DNA of 64,000 nucleotides. Source: Mobula hypostoma. Its lineage: Eukaryota. Where the stretch lies: contig NC_086097.1 in the NCBI RefSeq assembly GCF_963921235.1, positions 110,114,001 to 110,178,000 of the forward strand, written 5' to 3'. The notes beneath the pieces were generated by a model. The model did not search any database, was not told the origin of the DNA, and saw only the letters and a list, made by a program, of their open reading frames with translations. Position 1 is the stretch's first letter. The number at the start of each line of letters is the position of its first letter. The translations under genes and the position numbers were made by a program. Shown here piece after piece: positions 5,656-64,000 of this stretch.

Positions 5656-6762
5656 CTACCTCGGTAAAACAACACAATGACCACTTGACACTACAATAGA
5701 CTTTGTTTATTTTGTTTGAATTGTGTTCTTTCTTGTATAATTTTCTTTAATTTATGTTTAATTGATGTTTTTCTGGTCAATGCTGCTTATATGGCACACT
5801 GTGCCTGTGATACTGCAGCAAGTAAAACTACTCATGTGCATACATGTACTTGTGCATATGAAAATAAACTTGACTTTGACTTTATTGATAATGACTTGGT
5901 ATCTGGTGGCCAAGATGTGGCAAGAGAACAATAATGGTTTATTTGCATAGAGTAAAAACCATTCAGGAGTGAGGACTTCTCAGCTTCAAGGAAGGAAACA
6001 TTAAGAAAAACTTAAGGTAGAAACTGGGATTATGACACTTGAAAAAATGGTAATTGCTGTAGTGTTTCATAGATACATCAACCTATGCGATTAAAAACAA
6101 AACAAATTGCAAATTCTGGACATGAGAAAGTCTACAGATGCTGGAAAGCCAAAGCAACATGCACAAAATGCTGGAGGGAATCAACAGGCCAGGCAGTATC
6201 AATGGAAAAGAGTGAACAGTTGACGTTTCAAACCAAGACGTCAAGACCCTTCTTCAGGAGGGAGCACTTCCTGCAAATTCTGGAAAGCTGCAATATCAGT
6301 AAAATGCTGGAAATGCTGAAAGTAGTCAGCATTTCTGACCATAATTTTGGAGAGAGAAATAAAGTTAATGTTTCAGATTGATAGTTATGTATAGAGAAAA
6401 TAACACTTCAATGCAGGATAAGAGATTTCTCATTTGTAAAATCTATTGGAGAGTTCACTCATTGGTTTTATTAATAACACGAGTGCATACCGTACCACTG
6501 TTAAAATGAGGTTTTATTCAAATGTTGTTTATGTTGGGGCTTTCAAAGAGGATTACTGGTGTACACACAATGCCAAGTTTTTCTTTTGATATCAATGACA
6601 TGCCTACATATTGTTTAATTCTATCATTTTTCTATTGATAAAACTGGTAATTTAAGGGTGACACAAACAACAGGAATTCTGCAGATGCTGGAAATTCAAG
6701 CAATATACATCAAAGTTGCTGGTGAACGCAGCAGGCCAAGCAGCATCTATAGGAAGAGGCGC

Positions 6763-6798
6763 AGTCGACGTTTCAGGCCGAGACCCTTCATCAGGACT
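6763..6798 (-). ncRNA. Minimal type I hammerhead ribozyme motif in the Penelope pseudo-LTR
   Basis: Sense strand reads AGUC-CUGAUGA-AGG(GUCUCGG)CCU-GAAA-CGUC-GACU: stem I AGUC/GACU, CUGANGA and GAAA core boxes, stem II AGG/CCU, GUC cleavage triplet. Confidence 0.8.
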
Positions 6799-7095
6799 AA
6801 CTGAAGGAAGAGTGAGTAAGGGATTTGAAAGCTGGAGGGGGAGGGGGACATGCAAAATGATAGGAGAAGACAGGAGGGGGAGGGATCGAGCCAAGAGCTG
6901 GACAGGTGATCGGCAAAAGGGGATACGAGAGGATCATGGGACAGGAGGTCCGGGAAGAAAGACAAGGGGGAGGGGGTGACCCAGAGGATGGGCAAGAGGT
7001 ATATTCAGAGGGACAGAGGGAGAAAAAGGAGAGTGAGAGAAAGAATGTGTGCATAAAAATGAGTAACAGATGGGGTACGAGGGGGAGATGGGGCC

Positions 7096-8497
7096 TTAGC
7101 GGAAGTTAGAGAAGTCAATGTTCATGCCATCAGGTTGGAGGCTACCCAGACGGAATATAAGGTGTTGTTCCTCCAACCTGAGTGTGGCTTCATCTTTACA
7201 GTAGAGGAGGCCTTGGATAGACATGTCAGAATGGGAATGGGATGTGGAATTAAAATGTGTGGCCACTGGGAGATCCTGCTTTCTCTGGCGGACAGAGCGT
7301 AGATGTTCAGCAAAGCGGTCTCCCAGTCTGCGTCGGGTCTCACCAATATATAAAAGGCCACATCGGGAGCACCGGACGCAGTATATCACCCCAGTCGACT
7401 CACAGGTGAAGTGATGCCTCACCTGGAAGGACTGTTTGGGGCCCTGAATGGTGGTAAGGGAGGAAGTGTAAGGGCATGTGTAGCACTTGTTCCGCTTACA
7501 TGGTTAAGTGCCAGGAGGGAGATCAGTGGGGAGGGATGGGGGGGACAAATGGGCAAGGGAGTTGTGTAGGGAGCGATCCCTGCGGAATGCAGAGGGGGGG
7601 GGAGGGAAAGATGTGCTTAGTGGTGGGATCCCGTTGGAGGTGGCGGAAGTTACGGAGAATAATATGTTGGACCCGGAGGCTGGTGGGGTGGTAGGTGAGG
7701 ACCAGGGGAACCCTATTCCTAGTGGGGTGGTGGGAGGATAGAGTGAGAGCAGATGTACGTGAAATGGGGGAGATGCGTTTAAGAGCAGAGTTGATAGTGG
7801 AGGAAGGGAAGCCCCTTTCTTTAAAAAATGAAGACATCTCCCTCGTCCTAGAATGAAAAGCCTCATCATGAGAGCAGATGCAGCGGAGATGGAGGAATTG
7901 CGAGAAGGGGATGGCGTTTTTGCAAGAGACAGGGTGAGAAGAGGAATAGTCCAGATAGCTGTGAGAGTCAGTAGGCTTATAGTAGACATCAGTGGATAAG
8001 CTGTCTCCAGAGACAGAGACAGAAAGATCTAGAAAGGGGAGGGAGGTATCGGAAATGGACCAGGCAAACTTGAGGGCAGGGTGAAAGTTGGAGGCAAAGT
8101 TAATAAAGTCAACAAGTTCTGCATGCGTGCAGGAAGCAGCGCCAATGCAGTCGTTGATGTAGCGAAGGAAAAGTGGGGGACAGATACCAGAATAGGCACG
8201 GAACATAGATTGTTCCACAAACCCAACAAAAAGGCAGGCATAGCTAGGACCCATACGGGTGCCCATAGCTACACCTTTAGTTTGGAGGAAATGGGAGGAG
8301 CAAAAGGAGAAATTATTAAGAGTAAGGACTATTTCCGCTAGACGGAGCAGAGTGGTGGTAGAGGGGAACTGATTAGGTCTGGAATCCAAAAAGAAGCGTA
8401 GAGCTTTGAGACCTTCCTGATGGGGGATGGAAGTATATAAGGACTGGACATCCATGGTGAAAATAAAGCGGTGGGGGCCAGGGAACTTAAAATCATC
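7096..8497 (-). pseudogene. Penelope-like RT plus GIY-YIG endonuclease (truncated, frameshifted)
   Basis: RT motifs MDVQSLYTSIP, GVAMGTRMGPSYA, RYIND (YIDD with D>N) and YYKPTDSHSYLDYSSSHP. GIY-YIG motifs GVIYCVRCSRCGLLYIGET and EEQHLIFRLGSLQPDGMN. Frame break near 7590. Confidence 0.9.
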
Positions 8498-8523
8498 ATC
8501 GCTTACTCACTCTTCCTTCAGTT

Positions 8524-8559
8524 AGTCCTGACGAAGGGTCTCGGCCTGAAACGTCGACT
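8524..8559 (+). ncRNA. Minimal hammerhead ribozyme motif (inverted pseudo-LTR copy)
   Basis: agtc-ctgacga-agggtctcggcct-gaaa-cgtc-gact, with an intact core. Confidence 0.8.
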
Positions 8560-8653
8560 GCGCCTCTTCCTATAGATGCTGCTTGGCCTGCTGCGTTCAC
8601 CAGCAACTTTGATTTAAGGGTGACAGATGGTTTTGCTTCATTGTTGTTCTAAA

Positions 8654-9539
8654 TGTAACGCTCAGCTATATTGGCTGGTATACGTCTAGGGGAAATCCCG
8701 CCCGGCACCGGCCTGAACGCTTCCCGCTGGGTCGGTTGCTGTACCACTGCCACCCAAATCAATTCCAAATTCAATCATCAGCCAGCACACACAGTACGTT
8801 TTACCAAGTACACTTTATAGCTATTACTAAGTCTGTGAAATTAATATCAGTTTGACACAGAAAAGTAAGTAATGGGGAAAAAAGGCGCCAGACTTATCAA
8901 AGTCCAAGTTCTTTGTGCACAAGTTGGAGCTCAGAAATTCCTGACAAGCACCCGGATCCCGTCGACTCGCAGCTGGGGACCGCCCGGGCCCCGTCGACTC
9001 ACGGCTGGGGACCGCCCGGAGTGATTGACCAGAGCCTTTCCGCCCTTCCGCCGTCCTCCCCGTCTCTCCTCCGACTCTCCGTCTCTCCCCCGACTCCCCG
9101 TCTCTCCTCTGACTCCCCGCCAAAACCCCCGTCCACCATCCTCCCCGACTCTCCTCCGACTCCCTGCCAAAACCCCCGTCCACTGTCCTCCCCATCTCTC
9201 CTCCAACTCCCCGCCAAAACCCCCGTCCACCATCCTCCCCGTCTCTCCTCCGACTCCCCGCCAAAAACCCGTCTGCCGTCCTCTCCATCTCTCATCTGAT
9301 TCCCCGCCAAAAACCCTGTTCACAGTCATCTGAGACAGCATTATCAGCCTAAGAAATGATAACGTGAATACCCATTGGCTAATAGCACCCTGCTGTCTGT
9401 ATTAACCCAAGCAAATGTCCAGCTGGAGACTTTCTCAGCATTTAACATAACATGGAAGCCATTTTAATCCACATACGCAGCAATTTAAAAGATTAAATTT
9501 ACATTTTAAATTTAACATAAAAAGAAGAGACCTCGTACA
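8654..9539 (-). mobile_element. Solo LTR (~886 bp), probably Gypsy-type
   Basis: Begins TGTA, ends TACA, flanked by the 4-bp direct repeat TAAA (8650-8653, 9540-9543). CpG-rich relative to the flanks, with no coding region. Strand is tentative. Confidence 0.7.
9056..9320. repeat. 47-bp C-rich minisatellite (~4.7 copies) preceded by 19-bp subunit repeats
   Basis: Unit ctccccgtctctcctccgactccccgccaaaacccccgtccaccatc starts at 9094, 9141, 9188, 9235 and 9282. Confidence 0.9.
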
Positions 9540-9968
9540 TAAATAAGCCCTGTACATTCTTTCTTTAAGTGATACTGTATCAGATTCACTGTCGTTGTGG
9601 AGTGGCTTTCTTCAGTCTATTGTTCAGCTGAGGTATCCCAACTTTACCGCCAATCTTGCAGCAAATTCACCTCAGTTTTATGTATCATAGTCAATGATAA
9701 TTAAAGCTGTATGACAATCACATATTAATCCCCGTTCTAATATTAAGCATTCTTCAATTTTTTTCTCCCAGATCATGTGAAAAAATAATAATGAAGTGGC
9801 CATCATTCCCCACCATCGGTGGCAGCTTCCACTTTCCTTGCTGGTACATGAGAAGCTGCTACAAACCAAACTCCATTAGAGAGTTCCAGTTGGTGCTACC
9901 GAAGGCATGTGACAGATTACTAGGGGTGCTAAAGCAAAGAAAGTCTATTAAAAACATTAGTAATAACA

Positions 9969-10124
9969 AAAACAACAGGAATTCTGCAGATGCTGGAAAT
10001 TCAAGCAACACACATCATTCGTCAGGACTAAGACGAAGGGTCCCAGCCTGAAATGTCAACTGTACCTCTTCCTAGAGACGCTGCCTGGCCTGCTGCGTTC
10101 ATCAGCAACTTTGATGTGTGTTGC
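9969..10124. mobile_element. Miniature Penelope-like insertion (156 bp), inverted termini only
   Basis: Left part matches 6665-6712 and right part matches 8530-8611 of the larger element. 12-bp direct repeat TTAGTAATAACA at 9957-9968 and 10125-10136. Confidence 0.88.
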
Positions 10125-10149
10125 TTAGTAATAACACTTTTTTTGAAGT

Positions 10150-12310: not shown

Positions 12311-14717
12311 TAATTCCCTCAAGGATTATCATTTGGTAGTTGTGACCACTATAATATAATCGCCAGATCACCATTTACTCCTCCCTGTTCATCATGATGG
12401 TGGCCACAATTAAATTCCATCTGACCAACATTTGATTGCTCCAATCACCAAAAGCCAATGCCAGTCACCATCAGACTACCATACTACACACAGGACATAA
12501 GCACAGGAAGCATTGTGTACTGCAAATTTTGGCACACTGGCTTCAAAATTTCCAGTTCACTGTGTTAGAAGAAAAACAACAGATTAAACTCCTTCCATGA
12601 AATCTCATTTTGACTCCTTTGACAGAAATCTAGATCTAAAGAAATGGCTAAAAAGAAAATACTCTTTTATAATGTTAGTGATATTGAACCCAAAAGGTGT
12701 CAAAGATGTTCCCTGGCATCTGACCGCCTGATGAAGACTTTCAGCAGCATTGACTTGGGGTGTCCATGGAGCACTCTGTGCAAATGAAGCACTCTCCCAC
12801 TAAAACCCTCATACTCTGGCAAGGTTAATGCTGAAGCACTGGATTCACATGCCTGAGAATTCTCAAACCATTTAACTCAATCTCCTCTATTTCCCTCTCA
12901 CCCCATTCTCCTTTCAGCTCCTCTCACCATGCAGAAATCTAAATGAAATAGAACAGATACATGAGATCAAATTATATCCAACCTAATGGGGACAATTTAC
13001 ATTTTGATGCAGTTAGTAGGAGATCCAATCAATTTTCCTGGTCACACCTCATTTAAATTAAATTGGCAAGCTGCCAGAGCTAATCTCACTTCTTATAGGC
13101 AGCTAAACAATGGGAGTGTGGGAAATGCTGTCACTGAAAGGAAGATGTCAGTCATGAAGAGGAGCTTCACTTTTCAAAAGCAGCAGGCAACACGTCATCA
13201 GAGCACCACGAAGCATGATGTTGTTCAGTGTGATGCAGCTTTCTGTTGCAACCATGGGCAGTGGGTGAGAAACAGGAGAAGGGTTTTCTTCCCCTCTAGT
13301 GGACAATGATAACTGTCAAACTAGAAATTGAAGAAATAATCCAAGCAACAGTTCAAGATCATTGCAACAGCTCCAGTGAAAATTTAACAGCCTCACCAGG
13401 ACGGATGAGATAAAATCCGCTCATACTTCAAGACTCAAGATTCAGGATTCAGGATAGTTTAATGTCATTTCCAGTGCACAAGTGTAAAGGAGAACAAGCT
13501 TATTCCTATTCCGGATCTGATGCAGCACAAAAACATCCACAATAAGATAAAGACACAATAAATATAAAGCTTATGTACCAAGATTGATTGTATGCCCACA
13601 AAGTGATGCTAGGCACTGTAAAAGGTAGCTGACAGGATATGAAAAAGTAGTGGTGGTGGGGTCGTTCATGGGTGGAGGTGTTGATCAGCTTTACTGCTTA
13701 GGGAGAGTAACTGTTTCTCCTACTTGTTCTGCACTATTCGACATTCTCCAGCAAATGCCCTGTATTCGTTCCTCTAGGACGTCCCTCCTCTTTCTTTCTA
13801 CACTATGAAATGTGTCCTTCTGCTCGCACATGCACAATCAACTCATGCTTCCCTGTACCAAGGAAGAGGAATGGTTCCCAATAGCTAATCAGGTTCCAGC
13901 AGCCTTTGTGCCTCTGGTTATGAGTGTCTGTCTCCAACTTCAATTACCCTCATTCTCGTGGTTGGCTCCATCTGCTCATTTTCCTTCGCCCCTCCGCAGT
14001 CCACATATCACATTTCAGATCCGGTCACAGCACTCCCCTCTCTGCATTATATCGGCTGTCTCCCCTCTCCACTCTCAGTCTTGGTGCAGGGTCTTGACCA
14101 AAAACGTCAACAGTTCTTCACCCCCCGCCCCACCACCACCATACAGAGGCCTCTCGATCTGATTTTCCTCAACAGTTTGTTTCTTGCTCCTGTTACTTTC
14201 AGTATGACTAACTTCATCTTGCCATTTCTTCATATTATGCACATAATCCCAAACAGCATTATTTTGTCCTACCCTAATGCAGTTGCTCCTCTGCGATGAA
14301 AATGGGTAAGATTACATTTTATTTACTTTTTCAGTGATAAACAAATATATTAATAGTTTGCAGATCTAATTTGAAAGGAAGTAAACCTAAGTGGAAATAG
14401 TGTGTTGGTGTAAAAGATCCTTATGGACATTGAGAGGATTATTCCTGAAAAGCTATCCACTATAGAATAACGAGGGCCTGAATTTACAGGTAACTATCAA
14501 TGGTTTTGAACAGAATTGTTTCAATTTGTCCAAAAATTCTGTACCTCTGTGCACAGACAGTCAATTTCCCGACATTCAAAGGTAAAGCTGGAATTTTTTG
14601 AATTCTTAAGGAATTCGGGAATTGTCTCTTGGACCTTGTAGCAGGACCTGGCACAGGATCCACAGTCACTTCACAAGGATTGTAGAAGAAATGTCTTCCG
14701 GGTTCCATCTTGCTTAA

Positions 14718-15090
14718 CACGAGAAAATCCGCAGTTGCTGGAAATCCAAAGCAACACACACAGAATGCTGGAGGGACTCAGTTGGTCAGGCAGCATCTAT
14801 GGAAAAGAGTGAACAAGTCTGCATTTCGGGCTGAGACCTTGCTTCAAGATTGGAAAGGAAGGGGGAAGATGCCAGAATAAAAATGTTGGGGGAGGGTAAG
14901 GTGGATAGCTAGGAGGTGATAGGTGAAGACAGGTGGGTTGGAAAGGTAAAGGAATAAGCGATCTTATAGGAGAGGAGACAGGACAATAGAAGAAAGGGAA
15001 GGAGGAGGGACCTGGGGGAGGTGATAGGCAGGTGAGAAGAGGTAAGAGTCCAGAGTGGGGAATAAAAGAAGAGGGGAGGTGGAGGAAAAA
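14718..15090 (-). mobile_element. Penelope-like 3' UTR/pseudo-LTR fragment
   Basis: Similar to 6665-6990 ('aaatccgcagttgctggaaatcc', 'cagcatctatggaaa', purine-rich tract); hammerhead motif decayed. A comparable fragment lies at 42120-42365. Confidence 0.7.
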
Positions 15091-16815: not shown

Positions 16816-17670
16816 CTCCTACATCAAGAAGCATTCTCTTTTGTGTGCAATTTTCAAGCGCACTTGTCTTCCGTCTTGCCGAGTCTGGTCTGTAGCTCCC
16901 ACACTGTAAGCTGCACAATGTGTACCCTTACTAATATGACTCAGTAAACACGTTTAATCATACTACTCAGAGGTAGTTCTTGCTCTGTGCTATACGTAAT
17001 AATTTGGCAAAGAGGATCAAAATAAGAATGACCTCTCTACTCCAAGGACCCGATCCATCTTGGGCTGGAGCTGTCAGAGTTGAGGGCACATCGAGAAGGT
17101 CTGCTTCGCTGAGCAACACGCAATGAGAAAATGGCTGAGTTCAACCATCAACTCCACATAAGGAGACAGCTGGAAGAAAGAAGTGGGCACTGCTTTCCAA
17201 CCCCATGACATAGGCCACCAAAACCTGACCCCTTACTTGGTTACACTCATAGGGGACAACTAGCCCACGAAACTTGAGTTGGATGCAGGGTAAGCTGTCA
17301 CCTTACTACGTGAATTACCCTCAAGCCAGATTCCAGAATTACAAGTGCTGAACGTTATTTTTTGCAGCTACACTGGAGATAGCATTGAGTTGTATGATGC
17401 CTTTACTGCAGAAATAGTTCACCAGAGGGGCCTATTACATTTACCTGTAAATGTGGTCAGGGAGTCCAACAGACAAAACGGCTACGCAGAAATTGGATTC
17501 AAAATATGCCATCAGAGCTGTCCTGTATCAACTATATTGGGGGAAAGCTTGCATTGAGCTCTCCATTACAAAGGTACCAGCAGGTTTTCCAAGCTGACAC
17601 TTCATGTCTATACTATGGTCTGGTGACTAATTTCAAGCTTAAAGAGAACTTTCAATGTTGTGGTATTCAT

Positions 17671-18101
17671 CGAGCTTGACAATTAGCTTGCAGACATTTC
17701 ATCACCAGTTGAGGTGACATTCTCAGAGCACAGTTGTTGGTGTTTCTCTCTGGGAGTGCTCGCATTTATATTGGCTCCCATTTTCTTGCCTCGGCCATGA
17801 TTGGCTACCCCTTCAGTTGACCTTTGAATTCCATTGGCTTGCATTTCTTTGGCTCTTAGGGGTTCGTAGGTGGCGTCAGGGATCTTAGGGATTTTGATGT
17901 GTTTGTTTATGGAGTCATCAGAAGAGAACCATACTTCTAAAAATTCCCGTGCCTGCTTTGTGCTTGCCTGCATCAGAACCTCCAACAACTGTGCACTGAG
18001 GATGTCACCTCGACTGGTGATGAAAGGTCTGCAAGCTAATTGCCAAGCTCGGAAAACACCGCAACGTCAAACACCTCAATCCGAGCCACCAGTATTCACC
18101 A
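17671..18101 (-). mobile_element. Second Penelope-like family (Poseidon/Penelope-type) 3' fragment with inverted pseudo-LTR
   Basis: Endonuclease C-terminal peptide QASTKQAREFLEVWFSSDDSINKH. 17671-17740 is an imperfect inverted repeat of 17982-18051. Contains a hammerhead-like motif. Confidence 0.75.
17992..18033 (+). ncRNA. Hammerhead ribozyme-like motif
   Basis: tgca-ctgagga-tgtcacc(tcgact)ggtgat-gaaa-ggtc-tgca: stem I UGCA/UGCA, CUGANGA, 6-bp stem II, GAAA, GUC. The inverted copy reads gaaatgtc, suggesting an ancestral gaaacgtc. Confidence 0.65.
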
Positions 18102-22583: not shown

Positions 22584-25170
22584 TTAGCTGCGTAACACTA
22601 AGGGGCAGAAAACGCTGGTGGGAGTTGTGTACAGGCCACCTAACAGTAGTAGTGAGGTCGGAGATGGTATTAAACAGGAAATTAGAAATGTGTGCAATAA
22701 AGGAACAGCAGTTATAATGGGTGACTTCAATCTACATGTAGATTGGGTGAACCAAATTGGTAAAGGTTCTGAGGAAGAGGATTTCTTGGAGTGTATGCGG
22801 GATGGTTTTTTGAACCAACATGTCGAGGAACCAACTAGAGAGCAGGCTATTCTGGACTGGGTTTTGAGCGATGAGGAAGGGTTAATTAGCGATCTTGTCG
22901 TGAGAGGCCCCTTGGGTAAGAGTGACCATAATATGGTGGAATTCTTCATTAAGATGGAGAGTGACATAGTTAATTCAGAAACAAAGGTTCTGAACTTAAA
23001 GAGGGGTAACTTTGAAGGTATGAGACGTGAATTAGCTAAGATAGACGGTGGATATGCAATGGCAAGCATTTAAAGGTTGCATGGATGAACTACAACAATT
23101 GTTTATCCCAGTTTGGCAAAAGAATAAATCAAGGAAGGTAGTGCACCCGTGGCTGACAAGAGAAATTAGGGATACTATCAATTCCAAAGAAGAAGCATAC
23201 ACATTAGCCAGAAAAAGTGGCTCACCTGAGGACTGGGAGAAATTCAGAGTTCAGCAGAGGAGGACAAAGGGCTTAATTAGGAAGGAGAAAAAAGATTATG
23301 AGAGAAAACTGGCAGGGAACATAAAAACGGACTGTAAAAGCTTTTATAGATATGTAAAAAGGAAACGACTGGTAAAGACAAATGTAGGTCCCCTGCAGAC
23401 AGAAACAGGTGAATTGATTATGGGGAGCAAGGACATGGCAGACCAATTGAATAATTACTTTGGTTCTGTCTTCACTAAGGAGGACATAAATAATCTTCCA
23501 GAAATAGTAGGGGACAGAGGGTCCAGTGAGATGGAGGAACTGAGCGAAATACATGTTAGTAGGGAAGTGGTGTTAGGTAAATTGAAGGGGTTGAAGGCAG
23601 ATAAATCCCCAGGGCCAGATGGTCTGCATCCTAGAGTGCTTAAGGAAGTAGCCCAAAGTGATAATTTTTCAAAACTCGTTAGATTCTGGACTAGTTCCTG
23701 AGGATTGGAGGGTGGCTAATGTAACCCCACTTTTTAAAAAAGGAGGGAGAGAGAAACCGGGAAATTATAGACTGGTTAGCCTAACGTCAGTGGTGGGGAA
23801 ACTGCTGGAGTCAGTTATCAAAGATGTGATAAAAGCACATTTGGAAAGCGGTGAACAAATCGGACAAAGTCAGCATGGATTTGTGAAAGGAAAATCATGT
23901 CTGACGAATCTCATAGAATTTTTTGAGGATGTAACTAGTAGAGTGGATAGGGGAGAACAAGTGGATGTGGTATATTTGGATTTTCAAAAGGCTTTTGACA
24001 AGGTCCCACACAGCAGATTAGTGTGCAAACTTAAAGTACACAGTATTGGGGGTAAGGTATTGGTGTGGGTGGAGAATTGGTTAGCAGACAGGAAGCAAAG
24101 TGTGGGAATAAACAGGACCTTTTCAGAATGGCAGGTGGTGACTAGTGGGGTACCGCAAGGCTCAGTGCTGGGACCACAGTTGTTTACAATATATATTAAT
24201 GACTTGGATGAGGGAATTAAATGCAGCATCTCCAAGTTTGCGGATGACACGAAGCTGGGTGGCAGTGTTAGCTGTGAGGAGGATGCTAAGAGGATGCACG
24301 GTGACTTGGATAGGTTGGGTGAGTGGGCAAATTCATGGCAGATGCAATTTAATGTGGATAAATGTGAAGTTATCCACTTTGGTGGCAAAAATAGGAAAAC
24401 AGATTATTATCTGAATGGTGGCCGATTAGGAAAAGGGGAGGTGCAACGAGACCTGGGTGTCATTATACACCAGTCATTGAAAGTGGGCATGCAGGTACAG
24501 CAGGCGGTGAAAAAGACGAATGGTATGCTGGCATTTATAGCGAGAGGATTCGAGTACAGGAGCAGGGAGGTACTACTGCAGTTGTACAAGGCCTTGGTGA
24601 GACCACACCTGGAGTATTGTGTGCAGTTTTGGTCCCCTAATCTGAGGAAAGACATCCTTGCCATAGAGGGAGTACAAAGAAGGTTCACCAGATTGATTCC
24701 TGGGTTGGCAGGACTTTCATATGAAGAAAGACTGGATGAACTGGGCTTGTACTCGTTGGAATTTAGAAGATTGAGGGGGAATCTGATTGAAACATATAAG
24801 ATCCTAAAGGGATTGGACAGGCTAGATGCAGGAAGATTGTTCCCGATGTTGGGGAAGTCCAGAACGAGGGGCCACAGTTTGAGGATAGAGGGGAAGCCTT
24901 TTAGGACCGAGATTAGGAAAAACTTCTTCACACAGAGAGTGGTGAATCTGTGGAATTCTCTGCCACAGGAAACAGTTGAGGCCAGTTCATTGGCTGTGTT
25001 TAAGAGGGAGTTAGATATGGCCCTTGTGGCTATGGGGGTCAGGGGGTATGGAGGGAAGGCTGGGGCGGGGTTCTGAGTTAGATGATCAGCCATGATCATA
25101 ATAAATGGCGGTGCAGGCTCGAAGGGCAGAATGGCCTACTCCTGCACCTATTTTCTATGTTTCTATGTAT
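22584..25170 (+). mobile_element. Young CR1 LINE, 5'-truncated within the endonuclease
   Basis: APE motifs GVVYRPPN, MGDFN, ILDWV, SDHN; RT motifs QHGFVKGKSC, YLDFQKAFDKVPH, GVPQGSVLGP, FADD; 8-bp tail repeat TTTCTATG. Confidence 0.95.
22585..25076 (+). pseudogene. CR1 ORF2 (APE endonuclease-reverse transcriptase) broken by two frameshifts
   Basis: Three consecutive ORFs (22618-23073, 23048-23701, 23658-25076) with frame changes at ~23047 and ~23657 that look like small deletions; the RT part is open for 472 aa. Confidence 0.9.
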
Positions 25171-27627: not shown

Positions 27628-28458
27628 CAGCGGTCCCCAACCACCGGGCCGCAAAGTATGTGCTACCGGGCTGCAAGGAAACGATATGAGTCAGCTGCAC
27701 TTTTCCTCATTCCCTGTCACGCACTGTTGAACTTGAACATAGGGTTGCCAACTGTCCCATATTTGCCGGAACATCCCGTATATTGGGCTAAGTTGGTTTG
27801 TGTCCCATACGGGACTGCCCTTGTCCCATATTTCCCCTGCTAAGGTAGAGCGTTCCTATGAAACCTTTTGTGCCAAAATGGCGTGAAGAAAAGAAGCAAT
27901 TACCATTAACTTATATGGGAAAAATTTTTGAGCGTTCCCAGACCAAAAAAAACCTACCAAATCATACCAAATAACACATAAAACCTAAAATAACTCTAAT
28001 ATATAGTAAAAGCAGCAATAAATACACAGCCTATATAAAGTAGGAATAATGTATGTACAGTGTAGTCGGGAAGGTTAAGCCAAAACTGATTTGTGGAAAA
28101 AAAAATCGGCACATATGCACACTTCACGCACGCGCACACAGGTGCCCACGAAAGGCTTCATGGTCATGGTAATCTTTCTCGGGGTAAACACAAGTGTCCC
28201 GTCAACACACACAAAAAATGCTGGTGGAACGCAGCAGGCCAGGTAGCATCTGTAGGAAGAGGTATAGTCGACGTTTTGGGCCGGGACCCTTCGTCAGGAT
28301 TTGACTGCTACTTTTGTCCCTTATTTGGGAGTGAGAAAGTTGGCAACCCTAACTGTAAAAGACATGTTGAAGTGAGTTTAACCCTACTTGAACAACAGCC
28401 CCCCCCCCCTCCGCCCCGGTTGGCCGGTCCGTGGTGCAAAAAAGGTTAGGGACCCCTG
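27628..28458. mobile_element. hAT (Charlie-like) composite MITE, 831 bp
   Basis: TIRs CAGCGGTCCCCAACC / GGTTAGGGACCCCTG and a perfect 8-bp TSD CTCTACAA (27620-27627, 28459-28466). Confidence 0.92.
27740..28351. mobile_element. Inner Blackjack-like hAT MITE
   Basis: 14-bp TIRs TAGGGTTGCCAACT / AGTTGGCAACCCTA. Subterminal regions match both ends of the transposase-bearing element at 49907-53036. Contains a ~97-bp Penelope pseudo-LTR piece at ~28203-28299. Confidence 0.85.
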
Positions 28459-36280: not shown

Positions 36281-36479
36281 CAGAAGGCTGGGGTGTATTG
36301 CTGATGAAAGGCACATTCATTTATGTAAATTGAATAGAAGCCCAAACCCAAACTGAAACCACTTCCTGAGCCACAGGTGAAACCTGACATAGCGTTACAC
36401 CAGGTCTCTGATTCTGGCCACTGCATTGCCGCTTCCATGTCAATGTCAGCAATCAGTAAAATGGAGATAATTTCCTTCT

Positions 36480-38059
36480 CACAAGGACATCTGCAGATGC
36501 TGGAATTTCAAGCAACACACATAAAAGTTGCTGGTGAACGCAGCAGGCCAGGCAGTATCTCTAGGAAGAGGTACAGTCGACGTTTCGGGCCGAGACCCTT
36601 CGTCAGGACTAACTGAAGGAAGCGTTAGTAAGAGATTTGAAAGTGGGCGGGGGAGGGGAGATCTGAAATGATAGGAGAAGACAGGAGGGAGAGGGATGGA
36701 GCCAAGAGCTGAACAGGTGATTGGCAAAAGGGATATGAGAGGATCATGGGACAGGAGGCCTAGGGAGAAAGAAAAGGGGGAGGGGGGGAAGCCTAGAGGA
36801 TGGGCAAGGGGTATAGTGAGAGGGACAGTGGGAGAAAAAGGAGAGAGAGAAAAAGAATGTGTGTAAATAAATAATAAATAAATAAATAAATAACTGATGG
36901 GGTACGAGGGGGAGGCGGGGCATTAGCGGAAGTTTGAGAAGTCAATGTTCATGCCATCAGGTTGGAGGCTACCCAGACGGAATATAAGGTATTGTTCCTC
37001 CAACCTGAGTGCATCTCCCCCATTTCACGCCCATTTGCTCTCACTCCATCCTCCCGCCACCCCACTAAGAATAGGGTTCCCCTTGTCCTCACCTACCACC
37101 CCACCAGCCTCCGGGCCCAACATATAATTTCCCCGTAACTTCCGACTTCCACCACCTCCAACAGGATCGCACCAACAAGCACATTTTTCCCTCCCCCACC
37201 CCGCTTTCCACAGGGATCGCTCCCTACGCAACTCCCTCGTCCATTCGTACCCCCCATCCCTCTCCACTGATCTCCCACCTGGCACTTATCCTTGTAAGCG
37301 GAACAAGTGCTACACATTCCCTTACACTTCCTCCCTCACTACCATTCAGGGCCCTAGACAGTCCTTCCAGGTGAGGCGACACTTCACCTGTGAGTCGGTT
37401 GGGGTGACATATGGCGTCCGATGCTCCCGATGTGACCTTCGATATATTGGCGAGATCCAACGCAGACTGGGAGATCATTTCGCTGAACACCTACGCTCTG
37501 TCCGCCAGAGAAAGCAGCATCTCCCAGTGGCCACACATTTTAATTCCACGGACCATTCTCTTTCTGATATGTCTATCCATGGCCTCCTCTACTGTAAAGA
37601 TGAAGCCACACTCAGGTTGGAGGAACAACACCTTATATTCCATCTGGGTAGCCTCCAACCTGATGGCATGAACATTGACTTCTCAAACTTCCACTAATGC
37701 CCCACCTCCCCCTCATACCCCATTAGTTATTTATTTATTTATTATTTATTTATTTACACACATTCTTTTTCTCTCTCTCCTTTTTCTCCCTCTGTCCCTC
37801 TCACTACACCCCTTGCCCATCCTCTGGGTTTTCCTCCCTCCCCCTTTTCTTTCTCCCTAGGCCTCCTGTCCCATGATCCTCTCATATCCCTTTTGCCAAT
37901 CAACTGTCCAGCTCTTAGCTCCATCCTTCCCCCTCCTGTCTTCTCCTATCACTTCGGATCTCCCCCTCCCCCTCCCACTTTCAAATCTCTTACCAGCTCT
38001 TCTTTCAGTTAGTCCTGACGAAGGGTCTTGGCCTAAAACGTCGACTGTACCTCTTCCTA
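36480..38059. mobile_element. Penelope-like element (Neptune-type) with a long inverted duplication
   Basis: 36480-37009 is the 3' end in minus orientation and 37010-38059 is the linker, GIY-YIG (ORF 37371-37697) and 3' UTR in plus orientation. Flanking direct repeat GAGATAATTTCCTTCT at 36464-36479 and 38060-38075; its first bases overlap element sequence. Confidence 0.92.
36575..36610 (-). ncRNA. Minimal hammerhead ribozyme motif (intact core)
   Basis: Sense strand agtc-ctgacga-agggtctcggccc-gaaa-cgtc-gact. The partner copy at 38011-38046 (+) has GAAA changed to AAAA. Confidence 0.78.
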
Positions 38060-38199
38060 GAGATAATTTCCTTCTACTGTCCAAGGCTGTCACCTGATAC
38101 TTTCCAGCAGCCGGTCTCTTGGCAGTCCAGACTTCTGCTTTAGATTCAGTCCCCAAGATCAGATATTAATGTACTCAAAACTATTAATTTAATAAACAA

Positions 38200-42050: not shown

Positions 42051-42879
42051 CTGAAGCAGATTTAACAGAGAATGGTAACATAAAAAGTGGTAATTTCCAA
42101 AAAAAAATAAAGAAATAGCATCACACAAAAAATGCTGGAGGAACCCAGCAGATCAGGCAGCATCTCGGGAAATGAATAAACAGTTGACATTTTGGGTTGA
42201 GACCCTTCTTCAGGACCGAAAAGTAAGGGGGAAAAACGCCAGAGTAAAAAAGGTGGGGGGAGGGGAAGGAGGCTGGCTGTAAGGTGATAGGTGAAGCCAG
42301 GTGGGTGGGAAAGGTAAAGGCTGGAAAAGAAGGAATCTGACAGGAGAGGAGATTAGACCATGATAGGATTGATGGTAGTTCTTTCAGAGTGTTGATCCCT
42401 GGTCAATACTATTTAATACTAGAAGAGCTAAACTGAATAATCCCTAAAAAGACATGGTTTAGGGTTAATTCAGACTAGTCCATCATAGAACCATAGAACC
42501 ATAGAACACTACAGCACAGAAAACAGGCCATTCGGCCCTTCTAGTCTGTGCCAAAACATTATTCCGCTAGTCCCATTGACCTGCATCCAGTCCATAACCC
42601 TCCAGACTTCTCCTATCCATGTACCTATCCAATTTATTCTTAAAACTTATGAGTGAGCCTGCATTTACCATGTCATTAAAACTTGAGTGAGCAAGCATTT
42701 ACCACGTCATGATGCAGAAGGAAATTTCAATTCTCACTGTCTACATATTCCAAACACTTCTATAGGTAGCTAGAAGGCAACTCATTGGTCACACAGATTA
42801 GCCAATAGTCCTGTACTACTGGTGCTATTAATGATAAATTCTACGTGGTTACAGGAGGCAATGAAATTCTTTTGCCCAG

Positions 42880-53584: not shown

Positions 53585-55810
53585 ACAAGTTTGTTATACC
53601 AGTGCATCCCTACACATTTGTTATACCCGTGCATCAGAACAAGTAATTTATATCGGTGCATCTGCACAAGCTTGCTAAATCAGTGCGTCTGTGCAAGTTT
53701 CTTTACCAGTGCACCTGTACAAGTTTATTCTACCAGTGCATCTGTAGAAAATTGTTATACCAGCAGATCTGTACAAGATTGTCATACCCCTGCATCTATA
53801 CAAGATTTTTATATTGGTGCCCCTGTAGAAGTTTGTTATCCCCCTGCATCTGCACAAGTCTGTTATGTCAGTGCATCTGTACAAGTTTGTTATACAACTG
53901 CATCAAGTTTGTTGTACTGGTGTATCAGAACAAGTATGTTACACATCTGTATCTGCACAAGCTTGTTAAACTGATGCATCTGTACAAGTTTCTTTACCAG
54001 TGCTTTTGTACAAGTATGTTGTACCGGTGTGTCAGTACAGGTTTGTTATACAACTGCATCTGCACAAGCTTGTTGAACCTGTGCATCTGTAAACGTTTGT
54101 TATATTGGTGCTTCTGTATAAGTTTATTATACCGGTGCATCTCTACAAGTTTGTCAAAGTGTGCATCTTTATGAGTTTCTTATACCCCTCCTTCTGTACA
54201 AAATTGTGATATCAGTGCAGCAGTACAAGTTAATTATACTCCTGCATCTACACAAGTGTGTTATACCCCTGCATCTATACAATTATACATGTTCACCTGA
54301 ACAAGTTGTTGTCCTGGTGTATCTCTACAACTTCGTTATACTGGGGCATGTGCACAACCTGTGCATCTCTGCAAGTTTGTTGTAACAGAGCAACTGAAGA
54401 AATTTACTACATTGGTGCACCTGTACAAATTTGTGTACTGGGGAACTAGTACAAGGTTCTTATGCTGGTGTATATGTATAGGTTTGTTACACATACCCCT
54501 GCATCTGTACAAGTTTGTTAGACCAGTGGAACTGTACAACTTTGCTATACCAATGCATCTGTACAAGTTTGTTACACGCCTGTATCTGTACAATTTTTTT
54601 ATACTGGTGCAATTCTACAAGTTTGTCATTGCACTGCATCTACACAAGTTTGTTCTACCCCTGTATCAGCACAATTTTGTTATACTGGTGCATCTGTACA
54701 AGGTTGAGGTACCAGTGCATCTGTACAAGTTTGTTATACCAGTGACCTGAAACAAATATGTTAAACAGCTGATTCTGTGTAAGTTTGTGATAAACCTCCA
54801 TCTAGACAAGTTTGTTACACCCCTGCATCTGCACAAGATTGTTTTAGCCCTGTACAGTATCTGTACAAATTTCTTATAGCTCTGCATCTGCACAGCTTTG
54901 TTATACCCCTGTATCAGCAGAATTTTGCCACTCAGGGCTATGCACTAAGCCCCCTCCTTAACTCTCTGTATACCCATGTCTGTGTCACCACCCACAGCTC
55001 CAATCTGCTAATTAAATTTGCTGAGGAGACTACACTGATTGGCCTAATCTCAAATAATAATGTGGCATCTTACAGAGAAGTCATCACCCTGACACAGTGG
55101 TATCAAGAAAATAACCTCCCCCTCAATGTCGCAAAAACAAAGGTGCTGGTTGTGGACTACAGGAGGAATGGAGTCAGGCAAACCCCTACTGACATCAATG
55201 GATCTGGGGTTGAGAGCGTGAACAGCTTTAAACTCCTCGGCAAAAACATCACCGAGGATCTCATGTGGTCTGTACTTACTGACTGTGTGGTGATAAAGGC
55301 ACAACAGTGCCTCTTTCACCTCAGACAGTTTTAGAAGTTTGGTACAAGTCCCCAAATCCTAAGGACTTTCTACAGGGGCACAGTTGACAGCATCCTGACT
55401 GGCTGCATCACTGCCTAGTATGCGAACAGTACTTCCCTCAGTTGCAGGATTCTACAGAGTGTAGTGCAGACAGTCCAGCGCATCCGTAGATGTGAACCTC
55501 CCACTATTCAGGACATTTATATGAAGGATGTAAGTAATAAAGTTAATTTAATTCAGTTCTGTGAAACCAGTACACCTGTACAATGTTGTTGTACCAGTCC
55601 ATTTGTACAAGTTTATTATACTGGTGATCCCATGCAAATATGTGCGTTTGTGATAAACCTGTATCTGCAAGTATGTTTTACCAGTGTTCCTGCACAAGTT
55701 TATTTTACCGGTGCACCTGTACAAGTTTGTTATACTGGTGAATCTGTACAAGTCTGGGATAAACCTGCATCTGTACAAGTTTGTGATACCTCAGCATGAG
55801 CACAATTTTG
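53585..55810. repeat. 27-bp satellite, old diverged layer
   Basis: Approximate consensus tacaagtttgttataccagtgcatctg with heavily mutated units; interrupted at ~54929-55557. Confidence 0.9.
54929..55557 (+). mobile_element. Rex1/Babar fragment inserted in the satellite
   Basis: Closely matches 28740-29320 joined to 29621-29655 (internal deletion after 'caggacattta'). Confidence 0.85.
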
Positions 55811-56827: not shown

Positions 56828-59800
56828 ATGGAGATTGAGGAATTTCTAAAGGCGCCAACCTTGGAGGCATTAGGGGATGCCAAGAAAGCAGAATTGGCGA
56901 CTGTTGCAAAATGGTTGAATCTTTTGAAGGGGAGGCAGACAATAAGGAGAGCTGAGATGCACAGAGCCATTGTTGAGTATTATGTATCTAAAGATGTGTT
57001 TCCCCATGGGGAGCTGGAGGTGGCGTCTATAAGCAAACCTGGTGGGGAGGCGGTGCAGCTGCAGATGGAAAGATTAAGGCTCGAGCATGAGTTCCGAGTA
57101 AAGCAGCTAGAAAGGGAAGAGAGAGAAAAGCAGCTAGGACAGGAAGAGAGAGAGAAGCAGCTAGAAAGGGAGGAAAGAGAGAAGGAAAGGGAGGAAAGAG
57201 AGAAGGAAAGGGAGTTTGAGCTGGAGAAGTTAAAGATAACGTGAGAGGGGGGCCAAATGCCGGACCAAGGTGGAGGGTTCAGGGCGACCCAGGAGGTTAG
57301 GTTGGTTCCCCCATTTGAGGAGGCCAATGTTGATTGGTACTTTCTACATTTCGAAAAAGTCGCTGCAAGTCAGGACTGGCCGAGGGATAAGTGGGCTGTT
57401 CTGCTCCAGAGCGTGCTTAAGGGGAAGGCTCAGCAAGCTTACTCAGTGTTGTCAGCAGAAGATGCACAGAGGTATGTTGTGGTAAAAGAGGCGATACTCA
57501 GGATTTATGAGTTGGTCCCGGAGGCATACCGGCAAAGGTTCTGGAATGTGAGGAAGCAGTGGGGCTGCACGTATTTAGTTTGCCCGTGAGATGCAAATGT
57601 ATGGTGAGCGTTGGTGTGTCTCGAAAGGGGTCACTGGGGATTATGACAAACTGCTACAGCTAATACTGATTGAGCAATTTAAAGGTCGTGTCCCTGAAGG
57701 TATGAGGCCCTATCTAGATGAGAAGGAGGCAGAAACCTTAGCTGCAACCGCTAAGTTAGTGGATGAGTACGCGTTAACACACAAAGCAAAGTTTACCCCG
57801 AGTAAAAGCTACCAGAAGGGTAGAGAGGGCGGAGAGAGTCCGCCGGAAAAGCCAGAAAGTAAGCTGGGGACTAGTGAGAAGGATAAGGAAGACAGGAAGC
57901 AGTTTGGGAGGAAGTCTCCTGGGGTCGTATGCTATAATTGTGGGAAAGACGGTCACATTGCGTCCAGGTGTTTTGCCCCAAAGAAGGAGATGGGGAAAGG
58001 AAAAACGACAACTCCGACTGGTTGTATTGAGCCAAAACAAACCGCTAGGGAAGAAGAGGTCTGATAGAGTTCAGGAAGGGCGCGAGAAGTTTACTTTGGC
58101 TGGATTGGTGTCGGTGAAGGAGGGGTCAACCCCAGTTCCAGTATGGATCTGGAGAGACACTAAGGCTTGTCAATCATTGATCTTAAGGAGGGTGTTAGAA
58201 TTCAGTGCAGAGACCAAGACTGGGGAGATCAGTGTGATAAAAGGCATTGGGAAGGGGACTGAAACAGTACCTTTGCATCAGATATACCTAAAAAGTGACT
58301 TGGTCTCCGGACCGGTCACGATAGGGGTGAGGTCCGAATTACCATTGGAAGACGTGGAGGTCTTACTCGGTAATGACCTTGCAGGTGGAAATGTGTACCC
58401 AGCAGTAAAGCTGACGAGCAAGCCTTCCAGGACTGAGGACCCGCCCATGGATTCACAGGTTTATCCCGCTAGCGCAGTTACTCGACACATGTCCAGAAAG
58501 GCTGCCGAAGTGAATATAGATTTAGCTGAGACGTTTTTACCAACCTTGTACCAGGAGGGGTTAGAAAGTGAGAAGAAGGAGCATAGTGGAGCGGAAGGAA
58601 GTGAGGGAGTTGCGATAGATTTATCATTAGCGAGGAAGGAATTTATACAGGCACAGGAACGAGATGAGGAGCTGATGGTTTTGACGGAGACAGCTCTCTC
58701 TGAAGCAGAAATAAAAAGGGAACCAGTGGGCTATTATGTGAAGGAGGGAGTACTGATGAGGAAGTGGAGACCAAGTACCGTGCCCGCAGATGAGGAGTGG
58801 GGGGTGGTACACCAGGTGGTAGTGCTGAAAATTTATAGAGACGAGATTTTTAACCTGGCCTACAAGGTACCCCTCGGTGGACATTTTGGGGTGAGGAAAA
58901 CAGTCGATAGAATTATGAAAGAGTTTTACTGGCCGAACATGAGGAAGGATATTATTGAGTATTGTAGACGGTGTCACACCTGTCAGGTGGTAGGTAACTC
59001 GAACCAGGTCCTGCCTAAAGCGCCCCTTCGACCGATACCCGCTTTCAGGGAACTCTTTTCCCAAATAATTGTGGATTTTGCCGGTTCCCTGCCCAGAATT
59101 GCAAGTGGGCGAGTGTATGTGATGAGTACGATGTGTGCCTCTGCCAGGTTTTCGAGGTTGTGCCCCTGGAAAGCATCAAGGCTCCCGCAGTGGTAAAGGC
59201 GCTTGTGAAATTTTTCACTACAGTGGGGCTGCCCAGGGAAATCCAGTCAGATCAGGGGAGTGTCTTCACATCTCACACATTCCGACGGATGTTGGATGAG
59301 ATGGGAGCAAAGCAGATTTTGGCCTCCGTGTACCACCCAGAGTCCCAAAGGGCGTTGGAACGATTCCACGCAACATTAATGACCATGATTAAAATTTATT
59401 GTCGAGAGAACTCTAGGGACTGGCATGATGCCTTGCCTCTTCTGGTATTTGCCGTAAGGGATACGGTTCAGGAGTCATTGGGGTTCAGCCCATTCAAGCT
59501 CATCTTCGGTCATAGGCCCAGAAGACCTCTGACCTTACTGAAAGAGCAATGGTCCAGCCCAACAGTACAAGTCAATGTGATTGATCATGTTTTAAAATTT
59601 CCTGAGAGGCTTAAAAGGATCTGTGACCTTCTCAAAGAAAATCTACGAGACTCCCAAACAAAAATGAAACAGTGGTATGATAGACAAGCCCGAGAGCAAG
59701 TGTTTCAAGTGGGCAATAGGGTCTTAGCTCTGTTTCCAGTGGTAACCAGCCCCCTCCAGGTGAGATTCCACGGTCCGTACAAAGTGATTAAAAAGATAGA

Positions 59801-61409
59801 CTCTTTGAATTATGTTATTGAAACGCCAGACAGACGTAAGCCGACACAATTAGTGCATATTAATATGCTGAAAGCTTACCACGATGAGAAAGCAGATCCA
59901 GTCGGTGCTTTCACAAAAATGAATGAGGATGTGACGCCAAATGATAAGGGGAAAACACGTCTTGAAAAGATGAACATGGTGCCGACCAGATTGGAGTACT
60001 CTATGGTTTTGGCCAACTTTGCTGATAATGTCTCTCACTTAACCCCTGAACAGAGTGAGCCGCTGATAAAGCTAATTAATGGGCATGCAGATGTATGTCC
60101 AGATGTCCCAAGGCGATGCAAGGGGACGGTACATGATGTTATTGTTACATCAGATCAGCCTATTAAGCAACACTCCTATAGGATGAACTTGGAGAAGGGC
60201 AAGCTAGTGGAGAAAGAAATTGAACACATGCTAGCCACAGGTATTATTAGGCCATCCAAATCGGAATGGGCCTCTCCCTGTGTGGTTGTCCCGAAACCCG
60301 ATGGGAGCATACGATTCTGTACAGACTACAGAAAGGTGAACGCCATCACAAAAACTGATGCTTATCCTATCCCGAGGGCAGACGATTGCATCGATAAAAT
60401 GGGGAGGGCTAAGTACATCACAAAGATCGATTTGCTGAAAGGGTACTGGTGTGTTCCTTTAACCAACTGGGCGAGAGAAATCTCAGCATTTGTCACTCCA
60501 TCCGGGTTATACAAGTATAATGTTTTACCTTTGGTATGAAGAACACCCCAGGGACCTTCCGAAGGATGATTAATTCAGTGATAAAAGGGTTAAAGAACGC
60601 AGAAGCGTATATTGACGATTTGGTGGTCTGGAATGACACGTGAAAGGAGCACATTGTGGCAGTAGAGGAACTGTTTAAACGGCTGTCTGAAGCCAACCTG
60701 ACAGTGAACTTCGCGAAAAGTGAGTTCGGCCACGCTAAGGTCACATATCTGGGGTATGTGGTAGGACAAGGGCTGCTGGCACCGATGCAGGCTAAGGTTC
60801 AGGCTATCTCTGAAGTTCCCATCCCGACAGACAAGAGGGCCCTGAAAAGGTTTTTGGGGATGGTGGGGTACTATCAGAAGTTTTGTAAAAACTTTGAGGA
60901 TATTACCCTCCCTCTTACTAAGCTCTTGCTGAAGAATGAGAAGTTTGTGTGGAATGACCTTTGTCAACAAGCCTTCAAGAGTCTGAAGGCTATACTGTGT
61001 CACCACCCTGTATTGAGTGCGCCAGACTTTTCAAAACCCTTCTCCCTAGCAACAGATGCTAGCGGCGAAGCAACAGGGGCGGTGCTGTTGCAGACAGACA
61101 AGGAGGGAATTGAACACCCAGTGGCTTATTTTTCTAAGAAGTTTAATGTCCATCAGAGAAATTATTCACTGTGGAGAAGGAATTACTGGCAATCATTTTG
61201 GCATTACAACATTTTGAGGTTTATATTTGTCCGGCACGGAAACCACTGATAGTTTACACTGATCACAATCCATTAGTGTTTTTGACCACAATGAAGGATA
61301 AAAACAAACACTTGTTAAGTTGGAGTCTGGTATTACAGGAATTTGATATAAAAATAAAACATGTAAAAGGAAATGACAATGTGATTGCTGATTGTCTGTC
61401 CAGGTGTTA
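56828..61409 (+). pseudogene. gag-pol polyprotein, disrupted
   Basis: Gag: MEIEEFL.., coiled-coil KQLEREERE repeats, LVPPFEE..YFLHFEK, SCAN-like LILIEQFK..AAT.KLVDEY, CCHC knuckle CYNCGKDGHIASRC. Protease: RDTKACQSLI (DTG>DTK). Integrase: GHFG..CHTC, IVDF, SDQG, HPESQRALERFH. RT: WASP..PKPDGSIRFCTDYRKVN, YIDD at 60608-60619. RNase H: TDAS, EKELLA, TDH, ADCLSR. Frameshifts near 57245, 57580, 58040, 59155, 60530 and 61170; stop near 60641. Confidence 0.93.
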
Positions 61410-62711: not shown

Positions 62712-64000
62712 TTACAATTCTGTTATTCCAGTGCATCTGTACAAGTTTGTTATACCCCTGCACTGGCACAAGTTTGTTAAACCTGTACATCAGTACAAGT
62801 TTATTACACAAGTGCATCTGTAAATTTTGTTACACAAGTGCATCTGGAAAGTTTGTTACACAGGTGCAACTATACAAATTTGTTACACAGGTGCATCTGT
62901 CCAAGTTTGTTACACAGGTGCAACTATACAAATTTGTTACACAGGTGCATCTGTCCAAGTTTGTTACACAAGTGCATCTGTAAAGTTTGTTACACAGGTG
63001 CATCCGTTCAAGCTTGTTACACAGGTGCATCTGTACAAGTTTGTTACAGTGGTGCATCTGTACAAATTTGTTACACAGGTGCATCTGTGCAAATTTGTTA
63101 CACAGGTACATCTGTCCAAGTTTGTTTCACAGGTGCATCTGTACAAATTTGTTACACAGGTGTATCTGTCCAAGTTTGTTATACAGGTGCATCAATACAA
63201 CTTTGTTACACAGGTGCATCAGTACAAGTTTGTTACACTGGTGCACCTGTTCAAATTTATTACATAGGTGCACCTGTACAAGTTTGTTACACAGGTGCAT
63301 CTGTACAAGTTTGTTACACAGGTGCATCTGTACAAGTTTGTTACAGTGGTGCATCTGTGAAAATTTGTTACACAGGTTCATCTGTCCAAGTTTGTTACAC
63401 AGGTACATCTGTACAACTTTGTTACACAGGTGCATCAGTACAAGTTTGTTACACTGGTGCACCTGTTCAAATTTATTACATAGGTGCACCTGTACAAGTT
63501 TGTTACACAGGTGCATCTGTACAAGTTTGTTACAGTGGTGCATCTGTGAAAATTTGTTACACAGGTTCATCTGTCCAAGTTTGTTACACAGGTACATCTG
63601 TAAAGTTTGTTACACAGGTGGATCCGTTCAAGTTTGTTACACAGGTGCATCTGTACAAATTTGTTACACAGGTGCATCTGTACAAATTTTTTACACAGCT
63701 GTATCTGTCCAAGTTCGTTACACAGGTGCATCTGTACAAATCTGTTATACAGGTGCATCTGTCCAAGTTTGTTACACAGGTGCATCAGTAAAGTTTGTTA
63801 CACGGGTGCATCTGTCCAAGTTTGTTACACAGGTGCATCAGTAAAGTTTGTTACACAGGTGCATCCGTTCAAGTTTGTTACACAGGTGCATCTGTACAAA
63901 TTTGTTACACAGGTGCATCCGTACAAGTTTGTTACACAGGTGCATCTGTACAAGTTTGTTATACAGGTGCATCAATACAACTTTGTTACACAGGTGCATC
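62712..64000. repeat. 27-bp satellite, young homogeneous layer, running off the window end
   Basis: Consensus tacaagtttgttacacaggtgcatctg, with occasional 26-bp variants; diagnostic variant units recur 216 bp apart (63241, 63457). Confidence 0.96.

Follow-up and report, generated by a model that had tools for sequence, protein, structure and literature searches.

The locus examined here carries two minimal hammerhead ribozyme motifs on opposite strands of one Penelope-like retroelement insertion, which raises the question of whether they form a unit that cuts read-through RNA from either direction or are passengers of the process that inserted the element. Our analysis of the window, the whole 64,000-nucleotide stretch of Mobula hypostoma DNA that contains the locus, led us to conclude that both hammerheads are very probably passengers and that their inverted arrangement is a by-product of insertion.

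The two focal motifs are 36-nt minimal type I hammerheads at 6763-6798 on the minus strand and 8524-8559 on the plus strand, with predicted cuts 3′ of the C at 6767 and 3′ of the C at 8555, respectively, and they were located exactly where the original prediction had placed them, as were a third copy at 36575-36610 (minus strand) and a decayed G12>A variant at 38011-38046 (plus strand). In the 8524 copy, AGUC (8524-8527) pairs with GACU (8556-8559) as stem I, and the core CUGACGA (8528-8534) is followed by a bulged A (8535), the unpaired base that separates positions 9 and 10.1, and by a 4-bp stem II, in which GGGU (8536-8539) pairs with GCCU (8544-8547) across the loop CUCG. GAAA (8548-8551) then leads into the palindrome ACGU (8551-8554), which replaces stem III, and the GUC triplet (8553-8555); the unpaired nucleotide and the palindromic 15.2-16.2, both features of minimal hammerheads, are present in this copy. 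Both focal copies retain the core CUGANGA...GAAA, the A15.1-U16.1 pair and the NUH triplet, which supports the earlier identification: a Penelope-like pseudo-LTR holds a minimal type I hammerhead whose stem III is replaced by a palindromic ACGU. The motifs had also been called intact, and this holds for the catalytic core but not for the first pair of stem II, because G10.1-C11.1 is replaced by G·U in both focal copies. This pair, not obligatory in our descriptor, is described as highly conserved in passages of Cervera and De la Pena 2014 (PMC4209133), and G-C occupies it in the 36575 copy and in 17 of the 20 rows of the alignment described below. The 38011 variant, proposed as a natural GAAA>AAAA control, is not a single-change control, as it differs from the 8524 copy at 2 positions and from the 36575 copy at 3.

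A minimal-hammerhead descriptor that demanded both stems gave 4 matches in the window, whereas 200 dinucleotide shuffles averaged 0.035 (no match in 193, one match in 7), and a looser pattern gave 4 matches against 1.32 expected. The scan for hammerheads that had been recommended was thus positive by descriptor and negative by covariance model, since the Rfam models returned no hammerhead at E<=5 over the whole window or at E<=10 over 8450-8650. The latter result, together with the finding that a fold other than the hammerhead has the lowest energy in a 66-nt context, is what might be said for the motifs being a product of chance or of assembly. Against this stand the excess of descriptor matches, a perfect 14-bp duplication around the focal insertion, covariation in stem I, and the fact that contigs of related families cease to match exactly at the motif edges, 6762 and 6798, in four of four sequencing runs. 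We therefore regard a chance origin as already refuted, and the probability of chance or artefact as negligible.

To follow the motif in other families, we scanned metagenome contigs with a pattern that largely fixed stem II and left stem I outside, which returned 52 matches in 50 loci, not dereplicated; viral contigs gave 0 matches. A reverse transcriptase or endonuclease match accompanied the motif in 20 of the 50 loci, and an inverted match lay within 100 nt of it in 8 (7 distinct, L038 and L049 being one locus), a count on which it bears that many of these contigs end near the motif. At one locus, L016, the focal build recurs, here with a 14-bp repeat and a tail of ~41 nt. Among 15 distinct variants, a set that includes a probable chance match on a 1.29-Mb contig (L050), the first three pairs of stem I were paired in 78% of cases compared with 54% after shuffling, and 1 of 10000 shuffles scored as high. 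In an alignment of 20 chosen rows (3 window copies and 17 of the 52 metagenome matches, L050 excluded), the covariation score was 0.428 compared with 0.215 for shuffles (0/500 as high), with two-sided changes in all 4 stem I pairs, and two pair-count measures did not rise above shuffles (209/500 and 99/500). For stem I, the covariation that had been called for is present across families.

Failures of stem I at the pair adjoining the core were seen in L015 and in the family of L007 (5 matches). The latter family, comprising L007, L012, L014, L029 and L030, shows, in 5/5 matches, G·U at 10.1-11.1 and an unpaired 2.1-1.1; non-standard motifs thus recur across copies elsewhere. Loose contig ends piled up at 6762 and 6798 in 4/4 runs (753 and 545 contigs in run X1), and it follows that these 36 nt are common to sister families, which diverge in both flanks. 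Taken at the level of sequence, these comparisons point to a motif conserved among families, with selection acting in source lineages and not at the focal locus.

The element in which the focal hammerheads reside spans 6664-8611 and reads on the minus strand. Next to the pseudo-LTR lies the rest of the 3′ untranslated region (6825-7095), 3′ of the endonuclease stop and homologous to 36484-37011 and 37011-38064. It is followed by a CX4CXXC linker and a GIY-YIG endonuclease with CCHH-type residues (7096-7503), assigned by Pfam, translation and alignment (PF01541, E 4.4e-05, 24.1 bits against a cut-off of 22.6), and by a 5′-truncated reverse transcriptase (RT) remnant at 7504-8497, assigned by tblastn and alignment (matched part 8497-7592). 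The RT remnant by itself gave no Pfam match, and tblastn with full-length homologues aligned it at 54-69% identity with a change from frame -1 to -2. The order of RT and then C-terminal GIY-YIG with CCHH-type residues in one gene, a feature of endonuclease-bearing Penelope-like elements, is therefore present as a broken remnant, and the full open frame with YxDD of an active autonomous element is absent. Judged from its coding remains, the element is dead, because its 5′ part is missing (the first 340-490 residues of homologues), the catalytic motif reads YIND for YIDD (8153-8155), a frameshift lies near 7590-7625, and a stop at 7504-7506 separates endonuclease from RT.

At E<=0.001, 166 homologues of the RT piece were found, and the best named one among the matches listed, from Chiloscyllium punctatum (69%), points to a cartilaginous fish. 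A YIGET-like motif is present in 89 of the 120 that were listed out of these 166, and every one of the 89 also has CX2-5CXXC. The focal linker, CKRNKCYTC (7500-7474), fits this CX2-5CXXC zinc-finger linker between RT and endonuclease, which the consulted parts of Craig et al. 2021 (PMC8557442) describe as a feature of Neptune/Nematis absent from Penelope/Poseidon. Of Neptune and Nematis, Neptune is the clade reported in vertebrates. Because of this linker, we class the element by motif as Neptune-type (or Nematis). The element is a very abundant repeat by contig depth, which in run X1 summed to 1-6 million over the element compared with 19 on unique flanks, although such depth does not equal copy number.

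The focal insertion is bounded by a 14-bp target-site duplication, whose left copy (6650-6663) exactly matches the right copy (8612-8625), the first 2 nt of the latter also matching the element. Among 495 random pairs of window stretches of similar size, the longest exact match was 9 bp, which confirms the claim that both hammerheads belong to one insertion. A 3′ tail of ~45-47 nt (6664-6710, minus strand) is found at the left end only, arm homology starting at ~6706-6711. Beyond it, the part of the left-arm pseudo-LTR common to both arms (6711-6824, minus strand) is matched by an inverted, tail-less and 5′-truncated copy, the right arm (8498-8611, plus strand), so that the inverted pseudo-LTR, tail and target-site duplication of Penelope-like elements are all present. 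Neither arm is cut at the GUC site, and the insertion ends 103 nt beyond the cleavage nucleotide on the left arm versus 56 nt on the right. The focal arms are identical to each other at 110/111 positions and to the 36575 arm at 101-102/111; because they are closer mutually than to that arm, either U11.1 was already in the template or the arms were homogenised later. As regards the empty site, contig 18 of run X5 matches 6198-6649 and continues for 69 further unplaced letters, and contig 2 of run X1 extends to 6686, 23 nt into the element and below the 31-nt threshold; this at most hints that organism B among the runs may lack the insertion.

The inverted build is the norm for such insertions, as inverted arms occur in three other insertions in the window, two of the focal family and one of another family. 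The hammerheads at 36575 (minus strand) and 38011 (plus strand) are the two arms of one insertion, 36480-38059, with a 16-bp duplication (36464-36479 and 38060-38075) and an inversion point near 37011. Its arms are identical at 421/451 positions (23 transitions and 6 transversions) compared with about 87% identity to other copies, and neither arm contains the other, the left having the tail and the right ~590 nt more coding sequence; both have a (TAAA)n tract that is absent from the focal element. The third insertion of the focal family, a fold-back stub at 9969-10124 with a 12-bp duplication (9957-9968 and 10125-10136), turns inside the hammerhead (10018-10032) as a short hairpin, in which 10018-10031 is the reverse complement of the hammerhead 5′ half and no intact motif remains. 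The fourth case, at 17657-18065, belongs to an unrelated Penelope-like family with inverted arms of 91 nt (87% identical) and its own minimal hammerhead at 17996-18029 (plus strand), a descriptor match with a 6-bp stem II, whose decayed partner lies near 17693-17726 (minus strand). The minus-strand frame at 17683-18066 includes a stretch that we take to resemble the C-terminus of the Poseidon endonuclease, and it had no match with the 120 listed homologues.

All arms in the window read through the GUC site to insertion ends that lie 17-103 nt beyond the cut and never at it, which means that the RNA template had not been cleaved. The distance past the cut site is fixed at 99-103 nt for tailed ends and variable for tail-less ends (17, 56 and ~67 nt), which have 2-6 nt in common with the target. 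Older material is also present in the window, including a solo pseudo-LTR of a sister family at 6121-6271, which has a 13-bp duplication (6108-6120 and 6272-6284) and a hammerhead whose stem II carries an 8-nt insertion, and decayed minus-strand hammerhead or pseudo-LTR remnants at 14716-14851, 28203-28301 and 42133-42217, for which no target-site duplication was found.

As to how the focal arms arose, we propose that the element protein would nick both target strands ~14 nt apart, and that each free 3′ end would prime reverse transcription near the 3′ end of the uncut element RNA, the first cDNA starting at the tail end and the second ~46 nt further in. The two truncated cDNAs would then be joined head to head near 8497, and the motif would be copied into both arms because it lies 56-103 nt from the cDNA start points. 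The two-strand priming step is adopted by analogy with a Poseidon-clade protein from another family, studied in vitro. On the grounds that the arms of 36480-38059 are non-nested and that tailed ends are fixed and tail-less ends variable, the insertions may record two separate reverse transcription events from both nicked strands on uncut RNA, which would extend the anole result discussed below to a Neptune-type family; we advance this tentatively, at somewhat less than an even chance.

The hammerheads could also be passengers of an inversion that arose differently, through fold-back self-priming or template switching, acting on the first cDNA or, in the proposal of Arkhipova et al. 2013, on an antisense template, or through twin priming on one partial-tandem RNA whose upstream pseudo-LTR becomes the inverted arm. 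Several observations favour a fold-back: the stub at 9969-10124 turns inside the motif as a short hairpin, fold-back loci among the metagenome contigs turn 8.5 nt (L038/L049), 2 nt (L039) and 30 nt (L046) upstream of the core, and the closer identity of arms within an insertion than to other copies, seen in both the focal and the 36480-38059 insertions, suits a fold-back or a single template. The focal right arm, for its part, starts just ~30 nt upstream of the core, a position that a copied RNA 5′ end could also show. However, a simple fold-back would need a later deletion to yield the non-nested arms of 36480-38059, and no palindrome marks the junction at 8497. We consider that such a route is a serious candidate, if short of probable.

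The geometry that had been predicted is correct, in that a transcript from either direction would carry one sense hammerhead and a double-stranded stem. Whether the hammerhead could act in such a transcript is another matter: nearest-neighbour folding gave -239.7 kcal/mol for the arm duplex versus -6.0 for the hammerhead fold, and in whole-insertion folds 35/36 (plus) and 36/36 (minus) nucleotides of the sense motif paired with the antisense arm, which is transcribed before the sense hammerhead. The same pairing was predicted for a transcript ending at 8562. These are equilibrium calculations that ignore tertiary contacts, proteins and the 1.67-kb distance between the arms. With 5-nt flanks, the probability of stems I and II was 0.94-0.98 in both copies, and with 20-26 nt of native upstream flank it fell to <=0.02 because a rival hairpin forms, so a short sense transcript without the other arm and the upstream flank could fold as a hammerhead. 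This hairpin was matched by 0/100 and 1/100 shuffles in the focal copies and by 3/100 in L039, a fold-back junction. We rejected the idea of a general switch formed by a conserved inhibitory hairpin in the upstream flank, as no such strong hairpin is seen in the other 16 of 19 representatives, including the 36575 copy (21/100).

A working two-way unit, whose sense hammerhead would cut the read-through RNA carrying it whichever side transcription came from, draws some plausibility from the core, the GUC triplet and both stems being present in both copies, and from the covariation of stem I among families. The evidence runs strongly the other way, and the notion of a working or special two-way ribozyme is not supported: each sense copy is predicted to be wholly paired with the antisense arm made earlier, the rival hairpin is predicted to suppress stems I and II, partner copies have decayed in other insertions in the window, the element is dead, and the same build recurs in three more insertions and in print. 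Opposite-strand copies cannot form an active dimer in cis, as there is no second sense copy; in passages of PMC4209133, a single minimal hammerhead was assayed without cleavage and dimers cleaved weakly, and in those of PMC11167929 the anole motif required protein. Both focal copies also have G10.1·U11.1. This change is expected to lower hammerhead activity; our literature search found no paper on the effect of G10.1·U11.1 on rate, and the passages that it did find gave no rates. Such a unit is therefore very improbable. Most likely, going by the folding model, read-through RNA would bury the motif in a duplex of ~113 bp and the hammerhead does nothing at this locus, and in the source element, by analogy with the assayed motifs, it is probably a weak self-cleaving RNA assisted by a dimer or a protein.

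The locus might instead matter as a source of double-stranded RNA, an editing or small-RNA substrate that silences the family, with the ribozyme irrelevant. The near-perfect inverted arms of 113 bp would suit such a role, and antisense small RNAs against Penelope copies are reported from a rotifer in passages of PMC3846280. No host gene or transcript was identified across the locus, and Pfam searches of 14 of the 97 long frames returned transposon domains only. Contigs of two runs that we guessed to be RNA covered the repeat but not the flank at 6441-6587 and had no pile of ends, and they are uninformative on expression. We judge this role unlikely, and retain the reading of both hammerheads as passengers of insertion.

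The surrounding window is rich in other repeats. Another abundant repeat (8654-9540) starts ~30 nt to the right of the focal insertion and contains a 47-nt tandem array (9047-9363) and a 32-nt duplication (8951-9014). Pieces of a Gypsy-type LTR retrotransposon lie at 57778-61249, where the integrase domains come first and domains of RT and RNase H reappear further on, a succession suggestive of a rearrangement or of two copies. Frames of LINE-like reverse transcriptase (PF00078) occur at 23652-25076 and 54783-55334, and a tandem array of short units with long open frames, at ~62800-63850, gave weak, chance microRNA matches in Rfam.

The locus itself matters little, being one of very many dead copies; its value is as test material, given its clean duplications and paired arms. 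Families like the focal one make it possible to ask, genome-wide, whether insertions used one RNA template or two and whether the inserted motif is under selection, and thereby to address the in vivo role of Penelope hammerheads and the origin of inverted pseudo-LTRs. Should G10.1·U11.1 mark a young subfamily and not reflect decay, a lineage would have spread in spite of its weakened hammerhead, and that would speak for cleavage being dispensable in vivo.

Opposite-strand hammerheads in inverted Penelope ends are an ordinary arrangement already described in print; our literature search found no paper on the hammerhead of this fish family, the supplements of PMC4209133, which list further motifs, lying outside that search. 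As described in the main passages of Cervera and De la Pena 2014 (PMC4209133), dual minimal hammerheads lie on opposite strands ~100-700 bp apart in metazoan Penelope-like pseudo-LTRs. The focal motifs share with them the type I core, the 4-bp stem I, the pseudo-LTR location, the opposite-strand pairing, the unpaired nucleotide between 9 and 10.1 and the palindromic 15.2-16.2. They differ in their spacing of 1.73 kb, 4-bp stem II and G10.1·U11.1, and in their cartilaginous fish host, unnamed in those passages. In the typical Penelope-like structure, as outlined in parts of Arkhipova et al. 2013 (PMC3846280) and Craig et al. 2021 (PMC8557442), an inverted pseudo-LTR is combined with a tail and a duplication. 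By contrast, the focal insertion is without the direct upstream pseudo-LTR, which was lost by truncation, and has a tail of ~46 nt rather than 30-40 and no palindrome at its junction.

Non-LTR retrozymes, as presented in sections of a preprint that covers one chondrichthyan genome (bioRxiv 10.64898/2026.07.22.740005), likewise have a type I hammerhead derived from Penelope-like pseudo-LTRs. In retrozymes the units stand head to tail in tandem, the motifs lie on the same strand and a coding region is lacking, whereas the focal insertion is head-to-head with RT and endonuclease remnants; an identity with non-LTR retrozymes was rejected because its motifs lie on opposite strands of a head-to-head unit and not in a same-strand tandem. 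A mechanistic parallel in geometry is the Poseidon protein of Anolis carolinensis, which, in the consulted portion of Frangieh et al. 2024 (PMC11167929), nicked both strands in vitro and started reverse transcription at two points on an uncut RNA template, with a hammerhead that was protein-assisted, dispensable for insertion and without RNA-seq ends at its cut site. Our insertions share with this system two start points separated by the tail and a hammerhead left uncut in insertions, and their geometry, known here from DNA sequence, fits nicking and extension of both strands. They differ from anole Poseidon in belonging to another clade, in having the CX2-5CXXC linker, and in a second start that varies (17, 56 and ~67 nt past the cut).
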